The notes beneath the pieces were generated by a model. The model had not been told where the DNA came from. It did no database searches and saw only the letters and a list, made by a program, of their open reading frames with translations. From positions 1 through 16,123 of IMG/VR virus record IMGVR_UViG_2558860288_000003: DNA of 16,123 nt; one strand, written 5' to 3'. Positions 529 to 16,123 of the stretch are shown here, piece after piece. Both the position numbers and the translations under genes were made by a program. This DNA comes from a virus (Duplodnaviria > Heunggongvirae > Uroviricota > Caudoviricetes). Numbering within the stretch: the stretch's first letter is position 1; each line of letters begins with the position of its first letter.

Positions 529-1866
529 ATGTTCAACTACCAGCGCCACTGGTGGGAAGCCGGAAAAACCAACCGCATCCGCAACCTGCTGAAGTCACGC
601 CAGATCGGCGCGACCTTCTATTTTGCCCGTGAAGCCCTGATTGACGCTCTGCTTACCGGACGTAACCAGATTTTTCTTTCCGCCAGCAAGGCACAGGCCC
701 ACGTCTTCAAACAGTACATCATCGACTTTGCCAAAGAAGTGGAGGTGGAGCTGAAAGGCGATCCGATGGTGCTTCCCAACGGGGCCACACTGTATTTCCT
801 CGGCACCAATGCCCGCACGGCCCAGAGTTACCACGGCAACCTGTATCTGGATGAATATTTCTGGATACCGAAATTCCAGGAGCTGCGCAAAGTGGCTTCT
901 GGTATGGCTATTCACAAGAAATGGCGACAAACCTATTTTTCCACGCCATCCAGCCTGACACACAGTGCTTATCCGTTCTGGTCCGGTGCACTGTTCAACC
1001 GTGGGCGCAACAAAGCCGATAAGGTGGACATCGACCTGTCCCACAGCAATCTGGCCCCCGGCCTGCTGTGCGCAGACGGGCAATACCGCCAGATAGTCAC
1101 CGTGGAAGATGCGGTGCGCGGCGGCTGCAACCTGTTCGACCTTGACCAGTTGCGCATGGAGTACAGCCCGGACGAATACCAGAACCTGCTGATGTGCGAG
1201 TTTGTGGACGATCTCGCGTCCGTGTTTCCGCTCAGCGAGCTGCAGGCGTGCATGGTGGACAGTTGGGAAGTCTGGACCGACTTTCATGCTCTGGCCCTGC
1301 GCCCGTTTGGCTGGCGCGAAGTGTGGATCGGTTATGACCCGGCAAAAGGTACGCAGAACGGCGACAGTGCCGGATGCGTGGTGGTGGCACCGCCAGCCGT
1401 GCCAGGCGGTAAGTTCCGCATTCTTGAGCGTCACCAGTGGCGCGGGATGGACTTCCGCGCCCAGGCTGACGCCATCAAAAAACTGACCGAACAGTACAAC
1501 GTGACATACATCGGCATCGACTCAACTGGCGTCGGCCACGGGGTTTACGAGAACGTGAAAGCATTCTTTCCTGCCGTCCGGGAGTTTGTCTACAACCCCA
1601 ACGTTAAAAACGCCCTGGTACTCAAGGCCTACGACATTATCAGCCACCGCCGTCTGGAGTTTGACGCCGGACACACCGACATAGCGCAGTCATTCATGGC
1701 AATCCGTCGCGCCACCACCGCCAGTGGCAACCGCCCGACCTATGAAGCCAGCCGCAGCGAAGAAGCCAGCCACGCCGATCTGGCCTGGGCAACGATGCAC
1801 GCACTGTTTAACGAACCGCTGCAGGGCGAATCCGCCAATACCAGCAATATTGTGGAGATTTTTTGA
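529..1866 (+). CDS. Terminase large (ATPase) subunit, P2 gpP family; apparently N-terminally truncated
   Basis: The 445-aa ORF contains WWEAGKTNRIRNLLKSRQIGATFYFAREA and an acidic-residue-rich nuclease-like C-terminal half typical of P2-type large terminases. The frame stays open upstream to a TGA at 367-369 with protein-like sequence (LNPNVANRNKGPRRQPEKNVFTDEQIEKLEEIFHSS) but no start codon. The stop TGA overlaps the portal ATG. Confidence 0.8.
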   Translation: MFNYQRHWWEAGKTNRIRNLLKSRQIGATFYFAREALIDALLTGRNQIFLSASKAQAHVFKQYIIDFAKEVEVELKGDPMVLPNGATLYFLGTNARTAQSYHGNLYLDEYFWIPKFQELRKVASGMAIHKKWRQTYFSTPSSLTHSAYPFWSGALFNRGRNKADKVDIDLSHSNLAPGLLCADGQYRQIVTVEDAVRGGCNLFDLDQLRMEYSPDEYQNLLMCEFVDDLASVFPLSELQACMVDSWEVWTDFHALALRPFGWREVWIGYDPAKGTQNGDSAGCVVVAPPAVPGGKFRILERHQWRGMDFRAQADAIKKLTEQYNVTYIGIDSTGVGHGVYENVKAFFPAVREFVYNPNVKNALVLKAYDIISHRRLEFDAGHTDIAQSFMAIRRATTASGNRPTYEASRSEEASHADLAWATMHALFNEPLQGESANTSNIVEIF

Positions 1867-2894
1867 TGGGAAAGAGTAAGAAGAACCGCGCTGCGGCGAC
1901 GAAACAGATCCAGCTTAAAAGTCAAACTACAGCCGAAGCATTCAGCTTCGGCGATCCCGTTCCTGTTCTGGACCGCCGTGAACTGCTGGACTATGTGGAA
2001 TGCGTACAGATGGATCGCTGGTATGAGCCGCCTGTGAGTTTCGACGGACTGGCGCGAACCTTCCGCGCCGCCGTGCATCACAGTTCACCAATTGCGGTGA
2101 AATGCAATATTCTGACCAGTACCTACATCCCTCACCCGCTGCTCAGCCAGCAGGCTTTTTCACGTTTTGTGCAGGACTATCTGGTATTTGGTAACGCCTA
2201 TCTGGAGAAACGCACGAACCGGTTCGGTGAAATTATCGCTCTTGAGCCTGCCCTGGCAAAATATACCCGACGCGGGTTAGACCTGGATACCTACTGGTTT
2301 GTGCAATACGGTATGACCACGCAACCGTATCAGTTCACGAAAGGCAGCATTTTTCATCTGATGGAACCAGATATCAACCAGGAGATCTACGGCCTGCCCG
2401 GTTATCTTTCTGCCATTCCGTCAGCCCTGCTCAACGAGTCCGCCACGCTGTTCCGCCGTAAGTATTACATCAACGGCAGCCATGCAGGCTTCATCATGTA
2501 CATGACCGACGCCGCGCAGAACCAGGAAGATGTAAACAATCTCCGTAACGCGATGAAAAGCGCCAAAGGTCCAGGCAACTTCCGCAACCTGTTTATGTAC
2601 TCGCCTAACGGCAAAAAAGACGGGCTTCAGATTATTCCTCTGTCAGAAGTCGCGGCAAAGGATGAATTTTTGAATATCAAGAACGTGAGCCGGGATGACA
2701 TGATGGCAGCACACCGAGTGCCGCCGCAAATGATGGGGATAATGCCGAATAATGTTGGGGGATTTGGGGATGTGGAGAAGGCTAGTAAGGTTTTTATGCG
2801 TAATGAATTGATACCGCTACAAAACAGAATAGAAGAACTCAATAAATGGCTCAAAGATGACATAATAAAATTCATGCCATACAGTTTCATATAA
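1866..2894 (+). CDS. Portal protein, P2 gpQ family
   Basis: The ORF is about 342 aa from the ATG at 1866 (the ORF track began at an in-frame TTG at 1863). Size and position immediately downstream of the terminase ATPase gene match the P2 P-Q operon, with a TGATG overlap and GGAG upstream. Confidence 0.8.
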   Translation: MGKSKKNRAAATKQIQLKSQTTAEAFSFGDPVPVLDRRELLDYVECVQMDRWYEPPVSFDGLARTFRAAVHHSSPIAVKCNILTSTYIPHPLLSQQAFSRFVQDYLVFGNAYLEKRTNRFGEIIALEPALAKYTRRGLDLDTYWFVQYGMTTQPYQFTKGSIFHLMEPDINQEIYGLPGYLSAIPSALLNESATLFRRKYYINGSHAGFIMYMTDAAQNQEDVNNLRNAMKSAKGPGNFRNLFMYSPNGKKDGLQIIPLSEVAAKDEFLNIKNVSRDDMMAAHRVPPQMMGIMPNNVGGFGDVEKASKVFMRNELIPLQNRIEELNKWLKDDIIKFMPYSFI

Positions 2895-2925: not shown

Positions 2926-4131
2926 TTAAGATTTATGGCTAAAGAGTATACCTGTAACAGAACGTTGATAGGCATCAAGCTTCTCTTGCCTCTGCTTAAA
3001 TTTAGATTTGATATCACTAATACTCGGAATACCTATTACTCCAAGGCCTGCACTTAACGCCGTTAAAGTAGTATTGCCAGTCAGCGCTCCAGCAATTGCT
3101 ATAGCACCATTTGCGATACATGGTAGGACATCTAGTCCGTAAATTCTCAATTTCTCTTTTTGGGCTTTTGCAAGAATCCTTTGATGTTCAATAAAAGCCC
3201 GGTCTACATTATCAATTACTTTTTGCGTTGTCCTCGAAAAGCTCTCTGCCGAAGAATTGATTAAAGAGTCAACACCATTTGATAAGATGGATCTTACATC
3301 CTCCATCAATTTGTTACGTCTCAACTCAATTATTTTATTGACCGGTACATTTCCTAACCATGAAAAACCATCTTGCATACCAGCAGATAACGCATGAACC
3401 ATATGCAAATTTTTTAGTTCAATATCATTGACATCAAAATTAAGAGATTCGTACTCAATAAGCCAAGTATAATAGAGCCAAGATGTGTCTGCATTTATAT
3501 ATGGAGTACTACCAAGTTCTTGTGCATTACATTTTGCTGAATAGGCTTGCGGCATTCTTCCAATGCAGGAAAGGAAAACCTCCATTCCAGCATGATCACC
3601 AACAAGATTACGTGATATTCTTTTTTTATCAGATAGTAGTTTTTCTAATTGAGTTTTTGGATTTAGCCCCCATGCTGTATCAAAAATAAGTCTATCTGCT
3701 CTCTTAATATTTTTAAGAACAGCATCAATATCATTCATCGAATAACTAAAATCTCGAAATTCATCGTAGCTTTCGAACCGTCGATCATAGAGATATTGCG
3801 CATGAGTCAGAGCATAAGGCTCACAAAAACTCATCAAATTTTTTTTGCTCTCAGTTTCAAAATCTCTTCTATCCGGCAAAATTAATACTATTGCTGGCTC
3901 TATATCTTCAAGCGCTACTTCTTTATATGTCATACATGTTAGGACATGCTTCAGAAGTATCCTTGTAAACTCAGCCTTATCTGACTTTTCATAGAGACGA
4001 CCGACTCTTAATATAGGACATGGAAGTGAAATAGTATCAACATACAACCCTGCAATAGAGACAGCATTCTCATCAAATGCAGGAAATAAGTCACCAGAAA
4101 AATTAGCTTTAAACTGAGAACCATCCTGCAA
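2926..4131 (-). CDS. Uncharacterised protein, C-terminal ORF of split gene X (candidate defence / abortive-infection effector)
   Basis: The 401-codon ORF in the track starts at a TTG. The same frame stays open and protein-like for 40 more codons upstream, to a stop at 4252-4254 (SIKFFSQQEEYVKQIEDIFPELYNQVIEFWQVTSDIGVIH), with no ATG. The C-terminal region has a hydrophobic Gly/Ala-rich stretch (LPCIANGAIAIAGALTGNTTLTALSAGLGVIGIPSI). The gene is strongly AT-rich by eye. Confidence 0.6.
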   Translation of the reverse strand: MQDGSQFKANFSGDLFPAFDENAVSIAGLYVDTISLPCPILRVGRLYEKSDKAEFTRILLKHVLTCMTYKEVALEDIEPAIVLILPDRRDFETESKKNLMSFCEPYALTHAQYLYDRRFESYDEFRDFSYSMNDIDAVLKNIKRADRLIFDTAWGLNPKTQLEKLLSDKKRISRNLVGDHAGMEVFLSCIGRMPQAYSAKCNAQELGSTPYINADTSWLYYTWLIEYESLNFDVNDIELKNLHMVHALSAGMQDGFSWLGNVPVNKIIELRRNKLMEDVRSILSNGVDSLINSSAESFSRTTQKVIDNVDRAFIEHQRILAKAQKEKLRIYGLDVLPCIANGAIAIAGALTGNTTLTALSAGLGVIGIPSISDIKSKFKQRQEKLDAYQRSVTGILFSHKS

Positions 4132-4205
4132 ATGTATTACACCAATATCGGATGTTACCTGCCAAAACTCTATTACCTGATTATATAACTCAGGAAAAAT
4201 ATCTT

Positions 4206-4598
4206 CTATTTGCTTAACATATTCTTCTTGTTGAGAAAAAAACTTGATGCTTTATGTGGCGTTGCATTAGTTTTTTTCATCAGATAAAACAACTCGCCAA
4301 AATTACTAAAAAGAATATTAAAGTAAGAACTTTGCAAGTCCTGAATAGAGTATTTGTTTTTTATATCTTCTCTTTCTAAAAAGTGATTAACCGCTGCTCC
4401 CATAGCCCTTATTCTGCCATCAACAGTAGAAGGGTCAACTTTACCATCCTGTCGCAGCCTTATTCTTTTAAAACTTTCAATAAAACCTTCTACAAGATGA
4501 TGAGCTATTTTTAGTTTTCCCGCTTCCAGTTGTTGCTTAATGAGAAAAACACGCTCAGTTAAATCATCTACATATTCCTCATCTTGATATTTTTCCAT
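4206..4598 (-). CDS. Uncharacterised protein, N-terminal ORF of split gene X
   Basis: ATG at 4598 with a GGAG 5 nt upstream (ttaatGGAGcgtttATG). The 130-codon ORF ends shortly after a T7 homopolymer (plus-strand A7 at 4236-4242). One extra T would fuse it in frame to ORF 2926..4131. Confidence 0.55.
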   Translation of the reverse strand: MEKYQDEEYVDDLTERVFLIKQQLEAGKLKIAHHLVEGFIESFKRIRLRQDGKVDPSTVDGRIRAMGAAVNHFLEREDIKNKYSIQDLQSSYFNILFSNFGELFYLMKKTNATPHKASSFFLNKKNMLSK

Positions 4599-4706
4599 AA
4601 ACGCTCCATTAAAATATTTAATAATGCATATAAGAATAGTTAATAATATTTACAGTAACTATATCACATTAGATCCAGATTGTTACACTGTTGCGCGCGC
4701 TCGTAT
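4599..4706 (-). promoter_or_regulatory. AT-rich upstream region of gene X (putative promoter)
   Basis: About 100 bp of very AT-rich non-coding sequence immediately upstream of the gene X start, with several TATA-like hexamers. No -35/-10 pair could be assigned with confidence. Confidence 0.3.
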
Positions 4707-4718
4707 CCCCGCCACGCC
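4707..4718 (-). other. cos-like motif: GGCGTGGCGGGG on the minus strand, matching the first 12 nt of the 186 cohesive end as remembered
   Basis: The plus strand reads CCCCGCCACGCC. The remembered 19-nt cohesive ends are GGCGTGGCGGGGAAAGCAT (186) and GGCGAGGCGGGGAAAGCAC (P2). Here the first 12 nt match 186 exactly and 3 of the remaining 7 also match (about 15/19). Orientation and position (between the A/tum side and Q) fit a cos site. Confidence 0.4.
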
Positions 4719-4767
4719 TGCTCGCTTTGTGTAGTGGTTTTCATGCAGGTGCATGACATAAGCAAAA

Positions 4768-4787
4768 GCCCGCCAGAACTGGCGGGC
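4768..4787 (-). terminator. Hairpin GCCCGCC-AGAACT-GGCGGGC followed on the minus strand by TTTTGCTT
   Basis: Perfect 7-9 bp GC-rich inverted repeat. On the minus strand a T-run follows it, so it is a possible second terminator or structured element in the cos-proximal non-coding region. Confidence 0.35.
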
Positions 4788-5003
4788 CTGCATCAAAACG
4801 ATCCTCAAACGATCATGCGTTCTCATGCAGCATAGTCATGCACGGATGAGAGAAATGAATGCGCGTATCCAAATGCCCGTTTGAAAAACGCAGATGAACT
4901 AAAAAAGCTTAAGGTCTACTATGAGCGAGAAACGGACATTTAATTTTCGAGTAGTGGAAATCGAAGCCAGTACCTGCCGGAGCCATAGTATCGAAACCAC
5001 GAA

Positions 5004-5066: not shown

Positions 5067-6059
5067 TTACTCAACGGTCACAACTATTTTGCCGACCTGT
5101 CCATTGGACTCCATATAGCGCTGGGCGTCTGCAATCTCTTCGAACGGGAACGTCTTATCGATGACCGGCTTCAGTTTGCCGACTCGCAAGCCTTCTGTGA
5201 TAAAGGATTTTGCGCGCGCCATTTTTTCAGAGTCCGTCGTGATTTCAAACAGCTCATATCCACGCAGGGTGAGATGCTTACCGAGAATATCAAATACAGG
5301 CACAAGCATGTCACGGCTATCGAGCGCGCCGTACTGGAAAAACATACCCTGTGGTGCCATCACCTGCGTCAGTTTTGCCACGTCCGGCCCACCGACGGGA
5401 TCAAAAACAATATGGGCACCTGCGCCATCTGTTGCACGACTGATTTCAGCAACCATATCCTGCTCCGCAGTAGCAATGACGGCGGCTGCGCCAGCTTTAA
5501 GGAGCATTTCGCTTTTTTCAGAGGTCCGTGTGAGTGCAATTGGGTTTGCACCCAGCATGTTAGCAATCTGTATGGCAGCCAGACCCACGCTGCTTGATGC
5601 TGCGCGGATCACGACATTCTGACCAGCCTGAAGGTTGCCATACTCAACCAGCGCACCATAAGCGGTGACATACATCATCCAGCTTGCGGCGGCTTCCTCG
5701 AATGAAAGGTTTTCAGGATGCTTTACGACAGCATGAACCGGTGCGTTGACCACTTCACCATACATGCCGTATTCATTAAACATAAATGAAGGGATCACGC
5801 TTACCCGATCTCCAGTGGTAAACTCATCTACATTCTCACCTACTGCCTGTACAACGCCGGCCGCTTCATAACCAAGACGTGCCGGAAATTCCGGCTCAAT
5901 AACATATTGGCCGTTGCGGTACATGATTTCTGCACGGTTGATACCTATCGCATGTACGCGGATCTGCACTTCACCCGCTGTCGGTGCAGGCACCTGCACA
6001 TCAACAACTTCCAGCACTTCCGGGCCACCGGTGCGGTTAAAGGTAATAACTTTAGACAT
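5067..6059 (-). CDS. NAD(P)H:quinone oxidoreductase-like enzyme (medium-chain dehydrogenase/reductase superfamily)
   Basis: The translation MSKVITFNRTGGPEVLEVVDVQVPAPTAGEVQIRVHAIGINRAEI... has the typical quinone-oxidoreductase N-terminus and a Rossmann-type glycine-rich segment (VVIRAASSSVGLAAIQIA). ATG at 6059 with a GAGAG SD; the track start at 6065 is a TTG. Confidence 0.85.
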   Translation of the reverse strand: MSKVITFNRTGGPEVLEVVDVQVPAPTAGEVQIRVHAIGINRAEIMYRNGQYVIEPEFPARLGYEAAGVVQAVGENVDEFTTGDRVSVIPSFMFNEYGMYGEVVNAPVHAVVKHPENLSFEEAAASWMMYVTAYGALVEYGNLQAGQNVVIRAASSSVGLAAIQIANMLGANPIALTRTSEKSEMLLKAGAAAVIATAEQDMVAEISRATDGAGAHIVFDPVGGPDVAKLTQVMAPQGMFFQYGALDSRDMLVPVFDILGKHLTLRGYELFEITTDSEKMARAKSFITEGLRVGKLKPVIDKTFPFEEIADAQRYMESNGQVGKIVVTVE

Positions 6060-6208
6060 ATTCAACTCTCTTCAGTTAAAGGCACACCTTCAGAATAATG
6101 CCGAAGGGATGCCCGAATCATTTGTGAACAATCTACGTTGTTACGAACACACCAGAAATAGCTGAGAGGGAACTTCAGTATTAATTATCCATTAACAATC
6201 CGCCTGCT

Positions 6209-7099
6209 TCAGCGGATCTGCGTGGCCAGAATATCACTGAACCAGTCGATAAAGACGCGCACTTTTGGAGAAAGGTAGCGCCTGTCGGGATACATCACTG
6301 ACACGGGCTTTGACACCGATGGGTATTGCGGCAGAATCTCTTCAAGAGCGCCGGAAGCAATATGGGGAGCAACGGCATCATAGGTAGCCTGGATAATGCC
6401 CAGACCAGCCAGAGCACAAGAAAGCAGAATATCGGAATTATCAACCAGCAGGCTGCCCGCAGGACGTAGCGAAACAATGCTCCCGTCTTCGATAAACTTC
6501 CATTCCATGACGTCACGACTGTGGTCGCTAAAAAAGTTAATTGCCCGATGTTTATCCAGATCCGCAAGTGTTTCTGGCCGCTCATGCTGCTGCAGGTAAG
6601 ACGGGGCTGCACAGGTAACCATCCGGATGTCACCAAGACGTCTGGATATAAAACTAGAATCTTGAAGCGCCCCCAGGCGGACAAGGCAATCTACGCCTTC
6701 CGTAATCAAATCAGTTTTTTTATCGGAAGAAACCAGCACAACTTCAATACCTGGATACAGTGCCTGAAAATGCCTGAGATTAGGGATCAATATGGAATGC
6801 GCCAGCGCCAGGGGCACATCAAGTCTCAGGCGTCCTCGCGGTGGAAGTGTCGGTGAAAAACTGGCCATCATGTCATTAACTTCGGCCAGAACATGCCTAG
6901 CATGATGATAGAACTCATCCCCTTCAGCAGTAACGCTCAGCTTTCGGGTTGTGCGATAAATGAGTTTTACACCCAGATCATGCTCTATCTGCTGTATCGC
7001 TTTGCTCACAGTGGGGCGATGAATCTGAAGTACATCAGCAGCTTTCGTGAAGCTACCCTGCTCAACAACCTGTATGAAAATATTTAGGTATTCAATCAT
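6209..7099 (-). CDS. LysR-family transcriptional regulator
   Basis: From the ATG at 7099 the protein starts MIEYLNIFIQVVEQGSFTKAADVLQIHRPTVSKAIQQIEHDLGVKLIYRTTR..., the canonical LysR-family N-terminal helix-turn-helix. The rest has a substrate-binding-domain-like size of about 296 aa. Confidence 0.85.
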   Translation of the reverse strand: MIEYLNIFIQVVEQGSFTKAADVLQIHRPTVSKAIQQIEHDLGVKLIYRTTRKLSVTAEGDEFYHHARHVLAEVNDMMASFSPTLPPRGRLRLDVPLALAHSILIPNLRHFQALYPGIEVVLVSSDKKTDLITEGVDCLVRLGALQDSSFISRRLGDIRMVTCAAPSYLQQHERPETLADLDKHRAINFFSDHSRDVMEWKFIEDGSIVSLRPAGSLLVDNSDILLSCALAGLGIIQATYDAVAPHIASGALEEILPQYPSVSKPVSVMYPDRRYLSPKVRVFIDWFSDILATQIR

Positions 7100-7333
7100 G
7101 TTGGCATGCACGTGCTCACCTGTTTTGTAGGCTGTTCAAAACCGACATTGTAAAGTAAACCATCCCAACGACATTATTTCTTTTCGTTCAGATAAGGGCT
7201 TTCTGACTGTCACAATGTCCACTTCTGGCACAAAGCGGACGACCATTTTCAAATGGCCGTCGCATCTAACACCTCGTTTCACTCATTGTTCAACCTTACC
7301 CCCATCAGAAGGAATTCTTTCGGGGGCAACGTT

Positions 7334-7567
7334 TCAGTGTAACCAGCTGTCGTCTTCCCAGACCTGCTGCAGAATTTCCATTACACGTTCCTTATCTTCA
7401 GCCTGTCTTACCCCGCTAAGTTCAATACCATTGGCGCTGCCCTTGCGGATTCGGATAGCTGTTTTTGGGTAGAGGGGGCGCAAATTTCGGTAAAGCTCGG
7501 ATTCAAGTGCTTCTAAAAGCATCTGGCTAATTTTCTGCTCTTTATCGATCATTATTTCAATGCGCAT
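7334..7567 (-). CDS. DinI-family protein (186 Tum C-terminal-domain-like)
   Basis: The 77-aa protein MRIEIMIDKEQKISQMLLEALESELYRNLRPLYPKTAIRIRKGSANGIELSGVRQAEDKERVMEILQQVWEDDSWLH aligns with E. coli DinI as remembered (MRIEVTIAK...ELSRR...VSVRYAAANNLSV...KEDKQRISEILQETWE). ATG at 7567 is preceded by AGGGGA. Confidence 0.75.
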   Translation of the reverse strand: MRIEIMIDKEQKISQMLLEALESELYRNLRPLYPKTAIRIRKGSANGIELSGVRQAEDKERVMEILQQVWEDDSWLH

Positions 7568-7577
7568 AGATTTTCCC

Positions 7578-7766
7578 CTAACAGGTAACGTCCATTGTTC
7601 GGCTGTATTCATGGTTGCGGATTTTCGCCATCAGCTCGTCAGTCAGCTCGGAAACCCACTGGATGGCCAGCCGCTTTTCTTCGTCGCTGCACTCGCTCGC
7701 CGCTACCAGTTTTATGAAAAAATCGATGCGCTGAAGTTTCAATGATTCCAAAAGATAATCCTGCAT
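7578..7766 (-). CDS. Small protein, first gene of the SOS operon (Tum N-terminal-like?)
   Basis: ATG at 7766 with a strong SD (taatAGGAGGgaaaATG); the track start at 7787 is a GTG. The 62-aa product is MQDYLLESLKLQRIDFFIKLVAASECSDEEKRLAIQWVSELTDELMAKIRNHEYSRTMDVTC. Its TAG stop lies 10 nt before the DinI-like ATG, suggesting coupling. Confidence 0.5.
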   Translation of the reverse strand: MQDYLLESLKLQRIDFFIKLVAASECSDEEKRLAIQWVSELTDELMAKIRNHEYSRTMDVTC

Positions 7767-7798
7767 TTTCCCTCCTATTACGGCCACTTACACAAGAT

Positions 7799-7833
7799 AA
7801 CTGTATGTATATACACTGTTTATATATACAGTA
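7799..7833 (-). promoter_or_regulatory. LexA operator(s) / SOS-regulated promoter of the tum-like operon
   Basis: cACTGTTTATATATACAGTA at 7814-7833 is a perfect CTGT-N8-ACAG core and matches 18/20 of the consensus TACTGTATATATATACAGTA. A weaker overlapping box at 7799-7818 (aACTGTATGTATATACACTG) has ACAC instead of ACAG. Both lie 35-65 nt upstream of the operon start. Confidence 0.7.
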
Positions 7834-7922
7834 TAGTACCGATTTCTAAATGTAAAACGCTTTTTTGGACTTCAATAAGAAAGCCCTGATATGAGTCAAA
7901 GACAGGAAATATTTTCGGTGTG

Positions 7923-10316
7923 TCAGTAATACTGCCGCCACTTGTCATCCTCACGCAGCCGCCCGTTCTGGTAAAAGATGCGCAGCCCTCCCCCTGACGG
8001 AAGGCTGCCGCCGCGTAAAAGTAAATTCACTTCATACTCACTGCCATCGAACCCTCTGGACCGCAACTCATACTCCAGCTGCAGGCGCTGCTGCTCAGAA
8101 ATATTCTGCTTGTATGCCTTTTTCCGTTTCGGTTTTACCAGCCTGAGCCGGGCAACCAGCTCCCGCCGTTCCTTTTTGCCCATGCCGTGCAGATAGTCCT
8201 GCAGCGCCTTTTCATCCATGGACGTGATACCCGTTACTTCCCCCCCTGTTTGGTTCAAATTTTCAACAGGGGGACAGTTATTGCCACGAGTCCAAGGGGC
8301 GCAAGCGCCCTGGTCGGCTGCCGCCTCCTGAACGTCAACGGCCTTACGAACCATTTTCCACTTCACGGCATGAGTGCAGATCTTGCCCTCTGCAATAGGT
8401 GACCAGATGCCATAAATACGAATGCCGTGATCGCCATAGGCGGTCGGCTCTTCGTTGATTTCATAAGCAGTTCTGATGAGGTGATATTTGCGGGGAACCA
8501 GTACGCCACCCTGCTTCATGATGTAGGTGGCAAAACAACCAGCATCAGCAGCAGCCAGAATGGCATCAAGGCGCGGGTTATCCAGTACCGGCGCACCTGC
8601 TTTTTTGTCCCCCTGTTGCCTTGCCGCCTGACCAGCCAGCAATCGCAGTTCACGGTAAGCCTGACGCCCCGGAATGCCAAAGAAGCGGAATTGCTGAACA
8701 CGATGCAGAGACGCCCAGGCATTAACGTATTCAGCATTATCACGCAGGGATTTCCCCGTTTCCTTGCTGATCTCGCCAGCCAGACCACGCCCGTCAATGT
8801 TCTTACTGATGTATTTCACGATGTAGCTAGTCGGCGTTCCTTTGCGCGGGTTTATCAGCTCAGACTTAAAGCGTGGCCCCGTGTTATTACCCAGCTCCTC
8901 GCGGTCTTCACGGATAGCAAACTTACGCAACAATGCAGTAATGGCGCGGCGGTCTTTTTTGCGCATGAAACACAACAGGTGCCAGTGAACTGTGCCGTCA
9001 TGATGCGGCTCAGCCACCCGCACGCCATACCAGCGCAACCCGGCTTTGTGCATCGCCTTACGAAATGCAGCAAACATGCCGACCAGATAATCACTGCTTT
9101 GTCTTACCGTCGCATTTGTCCAGGTCGGGTTGGGCCTGCCGTTATTTAGCGTGGAATGGAAACGTGACGGACAGGTGATGGTGTAGAAAACGGCGCAGTC
9201 ACCGCGCATTTCCGCGATAAGCTCCAGACCTTTAACACAGGCCATCATCTCATTGCGGCGATGCGCAGGGTTGCTGCTGCTGGCGTTTACCACATCCTCC
9301 ATGTCCAGCGTGTCGCCGTCTTCGTTCACCAGTTCATGAGAACGGAAAAACTCCAGCGACTTACGGCGCTGCTCACGTTTATGCATCACGGCTTCATAGC
9401 TGACATAGGGAGATGCTTTTTTGCTGACCAGGCAAACAGCACGCAACTGCTCTTCCCGCCATTCGCAACGCATCTTCCATAATTTCCGGTACCACCAATC
9501 GGCGCACAACATACGCGCCAGCGAACCCGGAATGAGTTCATAGGGCACGGGTTTACGGCGGTTTCTTTTCCGGCGGAGTTGCTCAAACGCAGGCGGTATG
9601 ACATCCAGTCGCAGGGTTTCTGCTGCCACCTTTTCCCATGTCTTGCGGATTTCTTCTGGCTTAACATCATCGGTGGCGTACAAATCACCACAAGCGGCAT
9701 CAAGACACATACTCATATGCGCAGCGACAAGAGTAGACAGGCGTTTCACCTGATCCTGACTCATTTCAGGCAAGATCAGCAGGCCGTCCAGCCCTTCATG
9801 GCTTGCCATAAAGCGAAAAGAAGTGGATAGCTGACTGTCGCGTACATGCTCCAGTCGTTCCAGACATGGCTTAATCGTCTCACGCAAATAGCGGGAATAA
9901 GCCTTTGGCCTGCCCAGGCTGCTGAAGTATTCAATACGTTGCATCAGCGGCTTGCTGATATGGGAAGGCTGGGCGTTAACGTCCGCCAGTATGACCATGT
10001 CCGGATTAAAACGCTGCTGCTCATGCGCCAGCTTTGCCCGGCTAATAAGCTTATCCTGCTCCATTTCGCGCTGGACAGGATCACGGGATTCATTAAAGAA
10101 ATAACGCTCCCAGACCTGATCACTCAGTGCCTCGCGGCGCAGTTGTTCCTGCTCGTTATCGGCAGCGTACAGAGTGATCAGGTTTGAAAGCGCAGAAACC
10201 GGCGCAACTTCCGCCGGGTCCAGATAAGGGTTAATAGCCTTTTTCGGGCTGTTCCATGAGAATGCTGCGGCGGCCTCGTTAAAGCCGCTGCAGTTGTTCA
10301 TATCAGCATGGCTCAT
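7923..10316 (-). CDS. Replication initiation protein, P2 gpA family (rolling-circle HUH endonuclease)
   Basis: The 797-aa protein contains a His-hydrophobic-His motif ([11 protein letters not shown]) and sits at the P2 gene A position downstream of the early genes. Its start overlaps the dam stop (ATGA). Confidence 0.85.
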
Positions 10317-13407: not shown

Positions 13408-14040
13408 ATGAGTTTGATCAAGGCGGGAAATGATAGTGGTGGGCGCGATGCAATTAACAGGCTTATTAAGGCTTACAACTTCAGCTCACGACAGCAGCTC
13501 TGCGAACATCTGGAGGTATCCAAAAGCACTATGGCTAACAGATACTTAAGGGATAGCTTTCCTGCCGAATGGGTAATTCAATGTGCCCTTGAAACAGGAG
13601 CTTCCCTTCTATGGCTGGCTACTGGTCAAGGAGATATGTATGCGTGTGAGAACGAAGAAACAAATCTCAAAAATGAACCTCCCGTCACTGTAAGACCACT
13701 TTCTAAGATCGTTGCTCCTAGCATCAAACGTGTTGAACTGAAGAACGGCGAACTGCAGGCAAGTGATGAAATTCTTCTTGATAGCAGCCTGCTCGATGGT
13801 GACTCATCCAACGCTTTATTTGTTAAAACAGCTAATAATAGCTTTGTAGTGGATACGTCCGTTAAACAAGTCAGTAATGGCTTCTGGTTAGTCGATATGG
13901 ACGGAGTTAAAAGCATCGTCAAAATTGCGCGCATACCCGGAAACAAAATAGTAGTTAACCAAGATGACACTTCATTTGAATGTTCTGTAGATGATGTGGA
14001 AGTCGTAGGACGTGCAGTCAAAGTAATCAAGAACCTCTAA
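13408..14040 (+). CDS. cI: CI-like immunity repressor (186 CI type)
   Basis: ATG at 13408 with SD AAGGGG (the track start at 13333 has no SD and a non-protein-like leader). The 210-aa protein has an N-terminal DNA-binding-like region, sits divergent from apl/cII and lies directly upstream of int. Confidence 0.75.
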   Translation: MSLIKAGNDSGGRDAINRLIKAYNFSSRQQLCEHLEVSKSTMANRYLRDSFPAEWVIQCALETGASLLWLATGQGDMYACENEETNLKNEPPVTVRPLSKIVAPSIKRVELKNGELQASDEILLDSSLLDGDSSNALFVKTANNSFVVDTSVKQVSNGFWLVDMDGVKSIVKIARIPGNKIVVNQDDTSFECSVDDVEVVGRAVKVIKNL

Positions 14041-14043
14041 CTT

Positions 14044-15060
14044 ATGACCATCAGAAAACAGCCGAACGGAAAATGGTTGTGTGAGTGCTATCCCAATGGA
14101 CGCAATGGTAAGCGCGTGCGTAAGCAATTTGCTACCAAAGGCGAAGCCATTGCATTTGAAAGCTTCACCATGGACGAAGTAAACAAAAAGCCATGGCTTG
14201 GTGAGAAGGAAGATCGGCGGCGATTATCAGAAGTGATTGAGCAGTGGTATTCCCTATATGGTCAAACACTCGCAGACCCCAAACGCCTGATGGCGAAACT
14301 TAGAATTATCTGTAATGGTCTAGGCGATCCCATCGCCTCTGAGCTGACAGCAGGTGATTTCACAAAATATCGGGAAGCCAGATTAAAGGGGGAGGTCCAA
14401 AATGAAGACGGCTCGTTCATGTCACCCGTTAAACCTCGCACAGTTAATCTTGAGCAGCGTAACCTGTCATCGGTGTTCGGTACATTGAAAAAACTAGGGC
14501 ACTGGTCCGCACCAAACCCGCTGGCAGGGCTTCCAACCTTCAAAATTGCTGAAGGTGAATTGGCTTTTCTTTCCACGGACGAAATCAAACGCCTGCTTAA
14601 TGCCTGCGCCGAATCTCAAAACACCAGCCTACTAATGATTGCAAAAATATGCCTGGCTACTGGTGCGCGATGGAGTGAAGCAGAAAACTTGCAGGGCCAT
14701 CAGTTATCAAAATACCGGATCACCTATACCAAGACAAAAGGTAAGAAAAATCGTACCGTGCCGATATCTCAAAATCTGTATGATGAACTCCCCAAGAACA
14801 GAGGGAAACTATTCACACCGTGCAGAAAAGCCTTTGAACGAGCAGTAAAGCGAGCAGGCATCGAGCTACCAGAGGGCCAATGCACCCACGTGCTGCGTCA
14901 TACATTCGCCAGTCATTTTATGATGAATGGCGGGAATATTCTTGTCCTTAAAGAAATATTGGGCCATGCCGATATAAAAATGACGATGGTTTACGCACAC
15001 TTTTCTCCAGACCATCTAGAAGATGCTGTTACAAAAAATCCTTTACATAATTTGGTTTAA
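14044..15060 (+). CDS. int: Tyrosine integrase, P2/186 family
   Basis: The 338-aa protein starts MTIRKQPNGKWLCECYPNGRNGKRVRKQFATKGEAIAFESF..., typical of P2-family integrases. The C-terminal catalytic region has HVLRHTFASHF and a Tyr in MVYAHF. Confidence 0.9.
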   Translation: MTIRKQPNGKWLCECYPNGRNGKRVRKQFATKGEAIAFESFTMDEVNKKPWLGEKEDRRRLSEVIEQWYSLYGQTLADPKRLMAKLRIICNGLGDPIASELTAGDFTKYREARLKGEVQNEDGSFMSPVKPRTVNLEQRNLSSVFGTLKKLGHWSAPNPLAGLPTFKIAEGELAFLSTDEIKRLLNACAESQNTSLLMIAKICLATGARWSEAENLQGHQLSKYRITYTKTKGKKNRTVPISQNLYDELPKNRGKLFTPCRKAFERAVKRAGIELPEGQCTHVLRHTFASHFMMNGGNILVLKEILGHADIKMTMVYAHFSPDHLEDAVTKNPLHNLV

Positions 15061-15065
15061 TAGAA

Positions 15066-16123
15066 TGAAAAAAAAGCTCACATTAATCATTACCTACGCA
15101 ATCATTACTATCTTAATTGCCTTAGCATTGATATACACTAATCGTCCAAGAGTTTTTATCTTCTTTAGTGTAGCTTATATACTTGGATTGATACTTATGT
15201 TCTATTGCTTCAATTGGCTTAAACTAAATGAGAAAAATCTATTAAAACAACCATTATTCATAGCATCTATTATCGTACCGTTAAAAATGTTTGTTTTGTA
15301 TGGCCTCTGGGCTTGGAAAGGCCACGATTTAAATTTCACATCAGACGGTTTTAATCACTTTCTTGACATCTCTAAATTGCCATTATTTATTTTAGCTTCT
15401 TCGGTACCTCTTGCAGCAATCGTCAACAATATACATAGAACCACACAAACAGAGAACCAAATAGAAAAAACACAAAAGCAAATCAATCTTGTTATTGAAA
15501 AAAACACCACTGATTCATATTACTCACATCTGAAAAGCTTCGCTGACATATTCCAAACACTACCAACATTTAAATTATCAAGATTAAATAAAGAAACTAG
15601 TGATATAGACAGTATTGAACTATCTGTAGTTCATCCGTACACTCTTTATAAAAATATTTTCAAATCATCTTCCATTGATAATGGCTATAGCACCGTTGTC
15701 GAAGAAGATTTTATTCGAAAAACAACAAATCATTATAACAACATAAACAAATCGCTTAAGTCCAACAACAAAAATCATGACGACCAATTAGTTAGCCTAC
15801 AACTCATAGAATCAAACATAATTCAACTTTGCAGACTACTTGGAATTGATTATAAATACCAAGAACATCTTTTCTCAATAATTCTTGAACATCCAAAACC
15901 AGATACGGAAGCCATAAGCATCTCATTCAATGATGAAAAACAACTAAAGCAAATGCTTTGGGGACTAAGAAATATTCTCATTGAGTTATATGTTTTAATC
16001 GACAAGGACCCCTCTATCTTCCAAACAGGTAAAAGCAATGGTGATTACATACCTGAGTACGCACTATATGACGAAAAACTCTTTACAAGCATTTTACCTA
16101 TATCAAATGACCAGCGCATTTAA
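15066..16123 (+). CDS. AT-rich uncharacterised membrane protein (four predicted N-terminal TM helices plus a soluble domain of about 220 aa)
   Basis: Complete ORF of 352 aa from the ATG at 15066 (alternative ATG at 15023 overlaps the int 3' end); it ends in TAA at the window edge. Four hydrophobic segments (LTLIITYAIITILIALALIY, VFIFFSVAYILGLILMFYCF, LFIASIIVPLKMFVLYGLWAW, LPLFILASSVPLAAIV) precede a hydrophilic Asn/Lys-rich domain. Codon usage is very AT-rich. Confidence 0.6.

Follow-up and report, generated by a model that had tools for sequence, protein, structure and literature searches.

A probable LexA-controlled tumA–tumB operon of the phage 186 Tum type in a Fels-2-like prophage

The 16,123-nt stretch of viral DNA analysed here (Caudoviricetes; IMG/VR record IMGVR_UViG_2558860288_000003, hereafter the window) carries on its minus strand two small genes, tumA (open reading frame 1, ORF1; 62 amino acids) and tumB (ORF2; 77 amino acids), which lie in different reading frames between replication gene A and a cos-like site, the place that p95-tum occupies in coliphage 186 (Table 1). 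The 10-nt gap between them contains the GGGGA Shine–Dalgarno sequence of tumB, and because this sequence adjoins the tumA stop codon, translation of tumB is probably coupled to that of tumA. The original prediction described this pair as an SOS-controlled operon behind a perfect CTGT-N8-ACAG LexA site and an overlapping weaker one, 35–65 nt upstream, with a DinI-family product encoded by the second gene and an overall likeness to the LexA-repressed tum antirepressor system of 186. Our analysis bears out this description. The two sites together span −67 to −33 relative to the tumA ATG and match the LexA consensus at 18 of 20 and 16 of 20 positions; TumB matches the Pfam DinI family (PF06183, E=2e-23); and the likeness to 186 extends to the p95-like layout of promoter and LexA boxes, the position between gene A and cos, a 186-type CI repressor, a match to the C-terminal part of Tum and profile links to its N-terminal part.

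The SOS promoter, an analogue of 186 p95 read from the sequence, is overlapped by both LexA boxes, with its −10 hexamer inside box 1 (TACTGTATATATAAACAGTG). The cores of box 1 (7831–7816) and box 2 (CAGTGTATATACATACAGTT; 7816–7801) have G7816 in common, which places two 16-bp cores in a tandem register. In a scan of the 16-kb window, box 1 provided the sole perfect CTGT-N8-ACAG core (7816–7831), for which about 0.2 occurrences are expected by chance; 36 of 200 shuffles contained at least one. Box 1 was also the sole 20-mer in the window to come within three mismatches of the LexA consensus; no such 20-mer arose in 200 shuffles. The SOS promoter, on the minus strand, escaped a simple promoter scan. 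The strongest evidence that the boxes are not a chance occurrence is their conservation. A perfect box stands at this position, just 5′ of tumA or tum, in all ten reference phages (186, PSP3, Fels-2, SopEPhi, ESSI-2, ev015, Cartapus, 500465-1, a Klebsiella phage and the window itself) and in 63 of the 78 IMG/VR loci with the closest TumA. Among these 63 perfect-box loci, 62 have TTTACA at most 28 nt upstream of the box and 60 keep the second core, GTG(G/T)-N8-ACAG, with its one-base overlap. Species-representative genomes, an independent sample whose genera include Citrobacter, Enterobacter, Klebsiella, Serratia, Pantoea, Erwinia and Tatumella, gave a perfect box in 26 of 33 cases, and several of the other seven have a visible one-mismatch box, such as CTGT-N8-CCAG. 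Among the species representatives, LexA boxes precede tumA in loci without tumB as well. Thus, across the references, the IMG/VR loci and the species representatives, LexA control travels with tumA. Tandem overlapping boxes of the same form, CTGT-N8-ACAGTG(G/T)-N8-ACAG, are a feature of colicin promoters; here, they occur in the context of a phage antirepressor promoter.

The product of ORF1 matched phrog_698 (annotated as ‘unknown function’, E=2e-36) and also phrog_8554 and phrog_1993, the same three families that were matched by residues 1–70 of 186 Tum. For the Tum segment, the values were E=1.5e-23 for phrog_1993, which is the family of PSP3 TumA, E=3.4e-12 for phrog_8554 and E=5.9e-6 for phrog_698, the last in register at residues 6–44. 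Using alignments built here from IMG/VR loci, hhalign connected Fels-2-type TumA to the ev015/ESSI-2 type with 99% probability (E=1e-18), and the ev015 type to the Tum N terminus with 90% (E=1.5e-6). A relationship of ORF1 to the N-terminal half of Tum is supported by these profile comparisons. Among closer relatives, ORF1 is 85–97% identical to Fels-2 STM2728, SopEPhi orf10 and the SEN8 homologue, and 88% identical to ECHS_RS04495 of E. coli HS. No Pfam or NCBIfam family matched ORF1, and a PDB sequence search returned nothing. AlphaFold2, run on the single sequence, predicted a two-helix hairpin (helices 2–23 and 28–61; predicted local distance difference test score (pLDDT) 86) with the conserved Cys26 in the loop that joins the helices. 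In comparisons with homologues 73–88% identical in DNA, the proportion of synonymous differences (pS) was 0.5–0.8, near saturation, against 0.03–0.13 for non-synonymous differences (pN), and the ratio of the corresponding rates (dN/dS) was 0.03–0.12 in divergent pairs, reaching about 0.5 only where dS was at most 0.18. ORF1 is under strong purifying selection and is not a remnant, a possibility that the original prediction had allowed for.

TumB covers positions 2–63 of the 63-position DinI profile with 82.9 bits (gathering cut-off, 24.2) and aligns over its full length with E. coli DinI (PDB 1GHH, E=1.5e-8). Its acidic C-terminal helix, EDKERVMEILQQVWEDDSW, aligns with EDKQRISEILQETWESADDW of DinI, a helix that has been implicated in RecA binding. 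TumB is 78% identical to PSP3 TumB and 40% identical to residues 71–145 of 186 Tum. Against the NCBIfam DinI equivalog NF007893, it scored 51.7 bits, below the cut-off of 111, indicating that TumB is a phage paralogue rather than an orthologue of host dinI. It shares with E. coli DinI (PDB 1GHH, 7YWA) the Pfam family, the length and the acidic C-terminal helix but, unlike DinI, is co-transcribed with an antirepressor gene. As for tumA, purifying selection on tumB is strong (pS 0.5–0.8, pN 0.03–0.13, dN/dS 0.02–0.11), and the exact TumB sequence is present in GCA_000498235.1 and GCA_012360825.2.

In three sets of 80 IMG/VR loci, the architecture of the Tum family takes three forms that go with sequence type. 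In the Fels-2-type set, picked as the closest TumA matches, tumA and tumB are split by 10–14 nt in 78 of 80 loci; the 186-type Tum is a 146-amino-acid fusion in 77 of 80; and in the ev015/ESSI-2-type set, retrieved with ev015 TumA, all 80 loci have tumA with no DinI gene nearby. With 78 split loci, Fels-2-type TumA is normally encoded apart from TumB, and the pair in the window is not a frameshifted tum. Among species representatives, tumB is missing within 1 kb in 14 of 34 loci, and tumA-only loci predominate among the Pantoea and Erwinia representatives. The original prediction had singled out the two-polypeptide product as a curiosity. The split is real but not new: PSP3 is annotated with a tumA (‘UV induction of prophage’) and a tumB, and tum has been described as split in two in both Fels-2 and PSP3 (PMC3121763).

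The pairs in PSP3 (tumA/tumB), Fels-2 (STM2728/STM2726.1), SopEPhi (orf10/orf11) and E. coli HS all resemble that in the window in having two genes of about 60 and 77 codons, a junction of 3–14 nt, a position downstream of gene A and a LexA box in front. PSP3 differs from the window in the sequence type of its TumA (phrog_1993) and in having a single LexA box at −40 in place of the tandem boxes, and the cargo that follows tumB in PSP3 and the Fels-2-type relatives is not that of the window. In 186, as in the window, a LexA box overlaps a TACTGT −10 hexamer at the same genomic position in a phage with a CI/Apl/CII switch, and Tum corresponds to the pair in its DinI-like C-terminal half and, by profile, in its N-terminal half. 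Unlike the window, 186 has the halves fused in one 146-amino-acid protein, within which internal starts give rise to DinI-like products; a single LexA box is annotated there, and tum is followed by the canonical terminator t95a. A more distant parallel is provided by the Gifsy operons (GfoA, GftA), which are LexA-repressed and combine a DinI homologue with a small antirepressor of a non-cleavable repressor (PMC3121763), but place dinI first, use unrelated antirepressor and repressor families and belong to lambdoid phages.

Genetic data from relatives bear directly on the function of the pair. Tum of 186 is an anti-CI factor under the control of LexA (PMC7708051). For PSP3, data cited in PMC3121763 identify the upstream gene as the antirepressor. 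Prophage DuoHS of E. coli HS loses its mitomycin-induced lysis when tum (ECHS_RS04495) is deleted in frame, and lexA(Ind-) likewise blocks mitomycin induction (PMC12055606). The HS record shows that ECHS_RS04495 is a 62-amino-acid ORF directly upstream of a DinI-like gene and behind the same tandem LexA boxes. The module is therefore already known, having been described in PSP3, Fels-2 and DuoHS and shown genetically for a near-identical orthologue. The original prediction had called it unclear whether the DinI-like protein acts on CI, on RecA or on both; this question is largely answered by the assignment of the antirepressor function to the upstream gene, to which the PSP3 data, the HS deletion and the tumA-only relatives all point.

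Together, these results make it very probable that the locus is the SOS induction operon of a 186/Fels-2-like prophage, with TumA releasing CI control. In an undamaged cell, LexA dimers on the two tandem boxes would, judging from the layout, cover the −10 hexamer and the transcript start and keep the promoter shut. On DNA damage, RecA would become active, LexA would cleave itself and the tumA–tumB mRNA would be made. By homology with 186 Tum and PSP3 TumA, the predicted helical hairpin of TumA would then bind the non-cleavable 186-type CI (no Peptidase_S24 domain appeared among its Pfam matches) and block its binding to the operator, so that CI would no longer hold pR and the lytic early operon (apl, cII, ... 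A) would be switched on. This step, which would make TumA necessary for SOS induction, is supported by the deletion phenotype of the 88%-identical HS orthologue. RecA filaments are the most likely target of TumB, which would tune how strong the SOS signal is or how long it lasts and probably does not act on CI. Such a division, with TumA on CI and TumB on RecA, is favoured because phages with tumA alone exist, because deletion of tumA alone blocks induction and because TumB keeps the DinI C-terminal helix. Finally, and more speculatively, the transcript may end in, or be processed at, a conserved hairpin downstream of tumB, and read-through would enter the cargo that precedes cos.

Several observations weigh against this interpretation. 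The alignment with 186 Tum that had been proposed as a check gave a direct match for ORF2, whereas BLASTP aligned ORF1 with neither 186 Tum nor PSP3 TumA (PSP3 TumA and 186 Tum likewise gave no match to each other), and hhalign of Fels-2-type TumA directly against the 186 N terminus reached only 27% probability (E=7e-4); the homology of ORF1 to Tum thus runs through profiles and transitive links. The role proposed for TumB derives from its similarity to DinI alone. Most unexpected for a specific antirepressor is the relation between TumA and CI. In 65 loci, the median pairwise identity was 97% for TumA (minimum, 87%) and 42% for CI (minimum, 32%), and the two identities were uncorrelated (Spearman 0.06), with the caveat that the 80 loci of the Fels-2-type set had been picked as the closest TumA matches. 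Covariation of TumA with CI had been expected as support for specificity and was absent within the Fels-2 type.

A near-invariant TumA beside a diverging CI would be explained if TumA induced the prophage through a target other than CI, such as Apl, CII or a host factor. Consistent with this explanation, the CIs found beside TumA proteins that are 87–100% identical fall into at least 12 clusters at 70% identity, and the same CI clusters are found with Fels-2-type TumA and with TumA of the ev015 query set. We nevertheless regard a target other than CI as improbable, given that 186 Tum acts on CI (PMC7708051; PMC3121763) and that, at a coarse level, the TumA type tracks the CI clade, the CIs paired with 186-type Tum being at most 39% identical to those paired with Fels-2-type TumA. 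In addition, the helix-turn-helix (HTH) N-terminal domain of CI is strongly conserved in the Fels-2/ev015 group, where the linker and C-terminal domain vary, and has a different pattern in the 186 group, so that it offers a conserved docking surface; identity to the CI of the window is 51–95% in the N-terminal domain and 20–82% in the C-terminal domain. The pattern fits docking of TumA on the DNA-binding domain of CI. Conservation of the HTH domain explains it only in part, as even this domain is still far more variable than TumA.

Somewhat less probable again is that the true antirepressor, or one that is indispensable, is TumB and that ORF1 is no more than a leader peptide, chaperone or remnant. 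The fusion of both parts in one polypeptide in 186, the annotation of its shorter C-terminal products as modulating SOS induction and the lack of BLASTP similarity between ORF1 and Tum could be read in this way, but ORF1 is under strong purifying selection, tumA occurs with no DinI gene in all 80 ev015/ESSI-2-type loci and in 14 of the 34 from species representatives, E. coli HS loses induction when only the ORF1 orthologue is deleted in frame (PMC12055606) and, in PSP3, antirepressor activity is reportedly that of the upstream gene (PMC3121763). Least credible is an operon that mainly serves the host as an SOS accessory, with a DinI-like modulator limiting RecA, rather than as an induction switch: DinI homologues are common LexA-controlled prophage cargo, and non-polar dinI deletions in Gifsy prophages left induction unchanged (PMC3121763), but position, partner gene and orthologue phenotype all point to induction, and tumA keeps its LexA control in loci without tumB, too.

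Directly 3′ of the tumB stop codon lies a conserved hairpin, followed by a 30-nt conserved box, GGTTGAACAAYGAG-N5-GCGAGGCGTTAG, which can also be written GGTTGAACAAYGAG-N5-(G)CGAGGYGTTAG. All 12 pairs of the hairpin show compensatory changes; 94.5% of the alignment cells are paired, against 37–51% when the 3′ partners were slid, and these values were not equalled in any of 500 shuffles. By a hand tally, about 27 cells are G-U and 3 are A-C, an excess that points to the sense transcript as the structured RNA. The region 7195–7335 had a folding z-score of −3.6. No U tract follows the hairpin, and a simple terminator scan made no call on the hairpins after tumB, of which the second, GCGACGGCCATTTGAAAATGGTCGTCCGC followed by TTTGTG, is a weak terminator candidate. 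In many relatives, the next cargo gene takes its GAGG Shine–Dalgarno sequence and its ATG from the conserved box. In every occurrence, the hairpin–box element lies on the same strand as tum, and none of the 80 ev015-query loci has it; it also occurs after 186 orf97 (L001:6340–6415) and on both sides of PSP3 gp37 (L004:3552–3625 and 3958–4030). It has the appearance of a boundary to a cargo slot within the SOS operon. At the gathering threshold, no Rfam family was found anywhere in the window.

From the TumA–CI comparison and this element, we tentatively put forward a two-part proposal, which we consider rather unlikely: that Fels-2-type TumA is a broad-spectrum antirepressor, which may recognise the conserved HTH domain of CI; and, separately, that the hairpin and the 30-nt box form an undescribed RNA element that marks and controls the cargo slot of the SOS operon.

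The remaining genes of the window are those of an apparently complete, Fels-2/186-like prophage (Peduoviridae). Besides int and cI, the early region contains an ORF in the apl position, cII (CP76), fil, DUF5347, DUF2732, a DksA-like gene and a Dam methylase gene. Within the 3′ end of gene A, about 60 nt before its stop codon, a GC-rich terminator-like hairpin with a T-run lies on the minus strand (7982–8008). A 366-codon ORF on the plus strand (15023–16123) overlaps the 3′ end of int and reaches the end of the window; it had no Pfam or PADLOC match.

The cargo slot of the window, between tumB and cos, corresponds to the site of orf97 in 186. It encodes, on the same strand as tumA and tumB, a LysR regulator and a Zn-dependent alcohol dehydrogenase/quinone oxidoreductase (5067–7111, minus strand). 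A prophage cut off just after tumB, where the LysR gene comes next, was considered and rejected in view of the terminase and portal genes and the cos-like site in the window, so that the LysR and oxidoreductase genes are phage-borne cargo. The closest E. coli prophages share both flanks and lack the two genes. GGCGTGGCGGGGA is regarded as a putative cos from its resemblance to the 186 cos sequence; the P2 cos 19-mer had no match in the window within three mismatches. The 155-bp block that contains GGCGTGGCGGGGA (4683–4843) also holds a strong terminator hairpin, CAGGCCCGCCAGTTCTGGCGGGCTTTTGCTT, on the minus strand (about 4760–4790). Between cos and the portal gene, the minus strand encodes proteins of 401 and 130 amino acids (2926–4598), neither with a Pfam family; the former has a weak PADLOC match to DitB (E=1.9e-10), and the pair is 93–99% identical in some E. 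coli prophages. This interval may be a defence-type cargo hotspot.

Table 1 Positions of the features of the tumA–tumB locus and of its phage context in the window
Feature	Position	Strand	Remarks
−35 hexamer TTTACA	7851–7856	minus	read from sequence; analogue of 186 p95
−10 hexamer TACTGT	7828–7833	minus	inside LexA box 1; 17-nt spacer from −35
LexA box 1	7814–7833		core CTGT-N8-ACAG, perfect
LexA box 2	7799–7818		core GTGT-N8-ACAG
tumA Shine–Dalgarno GGAGGG	7770–7775	minus	
tumA (62 amino acids)	7578–7766	minus	ATG 7766, TAG 7580–7578; antirepressor homologue
tumB Shine–Dalgarno GGGGA	7573–7577	minus	adjoins tumA stop codon
tumB (77 amino acids)	7334–7567	minus	ATG 7567, TGA 7336–7334; DinI family
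Conserved RNA hairpin	7296–7333	minus	directly 3′ of tumB stop
Conserved box	7266–7295	minus	after hairpin
Second hairpin, then TTTGTG	7229–7263	minus	weak terminator candidate
cI, 186-type immunity repressor	13408–14040	plus	Pfam Phage_CI_repr and Phage_CI_C; putative TumA target
int	14044–15060		186-type early region
Replication gene A (Phage_GPA)	7923–10316		
cos-like sequence	~4704–4716		in a conserved 155-bp block also present in Fels-2, MLG42 and Klebsiella phages
Terminase and portal genes	529–2894		

The SOS induction operon proposed here explains how a prophage whose CI RecA cannot cleave responds to DNA damage, and mitomycin, fluoroquinolones and inflammation are its predicted inducers. 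The mechanism is textbook knowledge for 186, to which this locus adds an instance and not a concept. The near-invariant antirepressor that accompanies divergent repressors, together with the strand-specific structured element at a cargo hotspot, could make a small study. If TumA is indeed a broad-spectrum antirepressor, a single TumA, once made in the SOS response, could also induce heteroimmune P2/186-like prophages that reside in the same cell.

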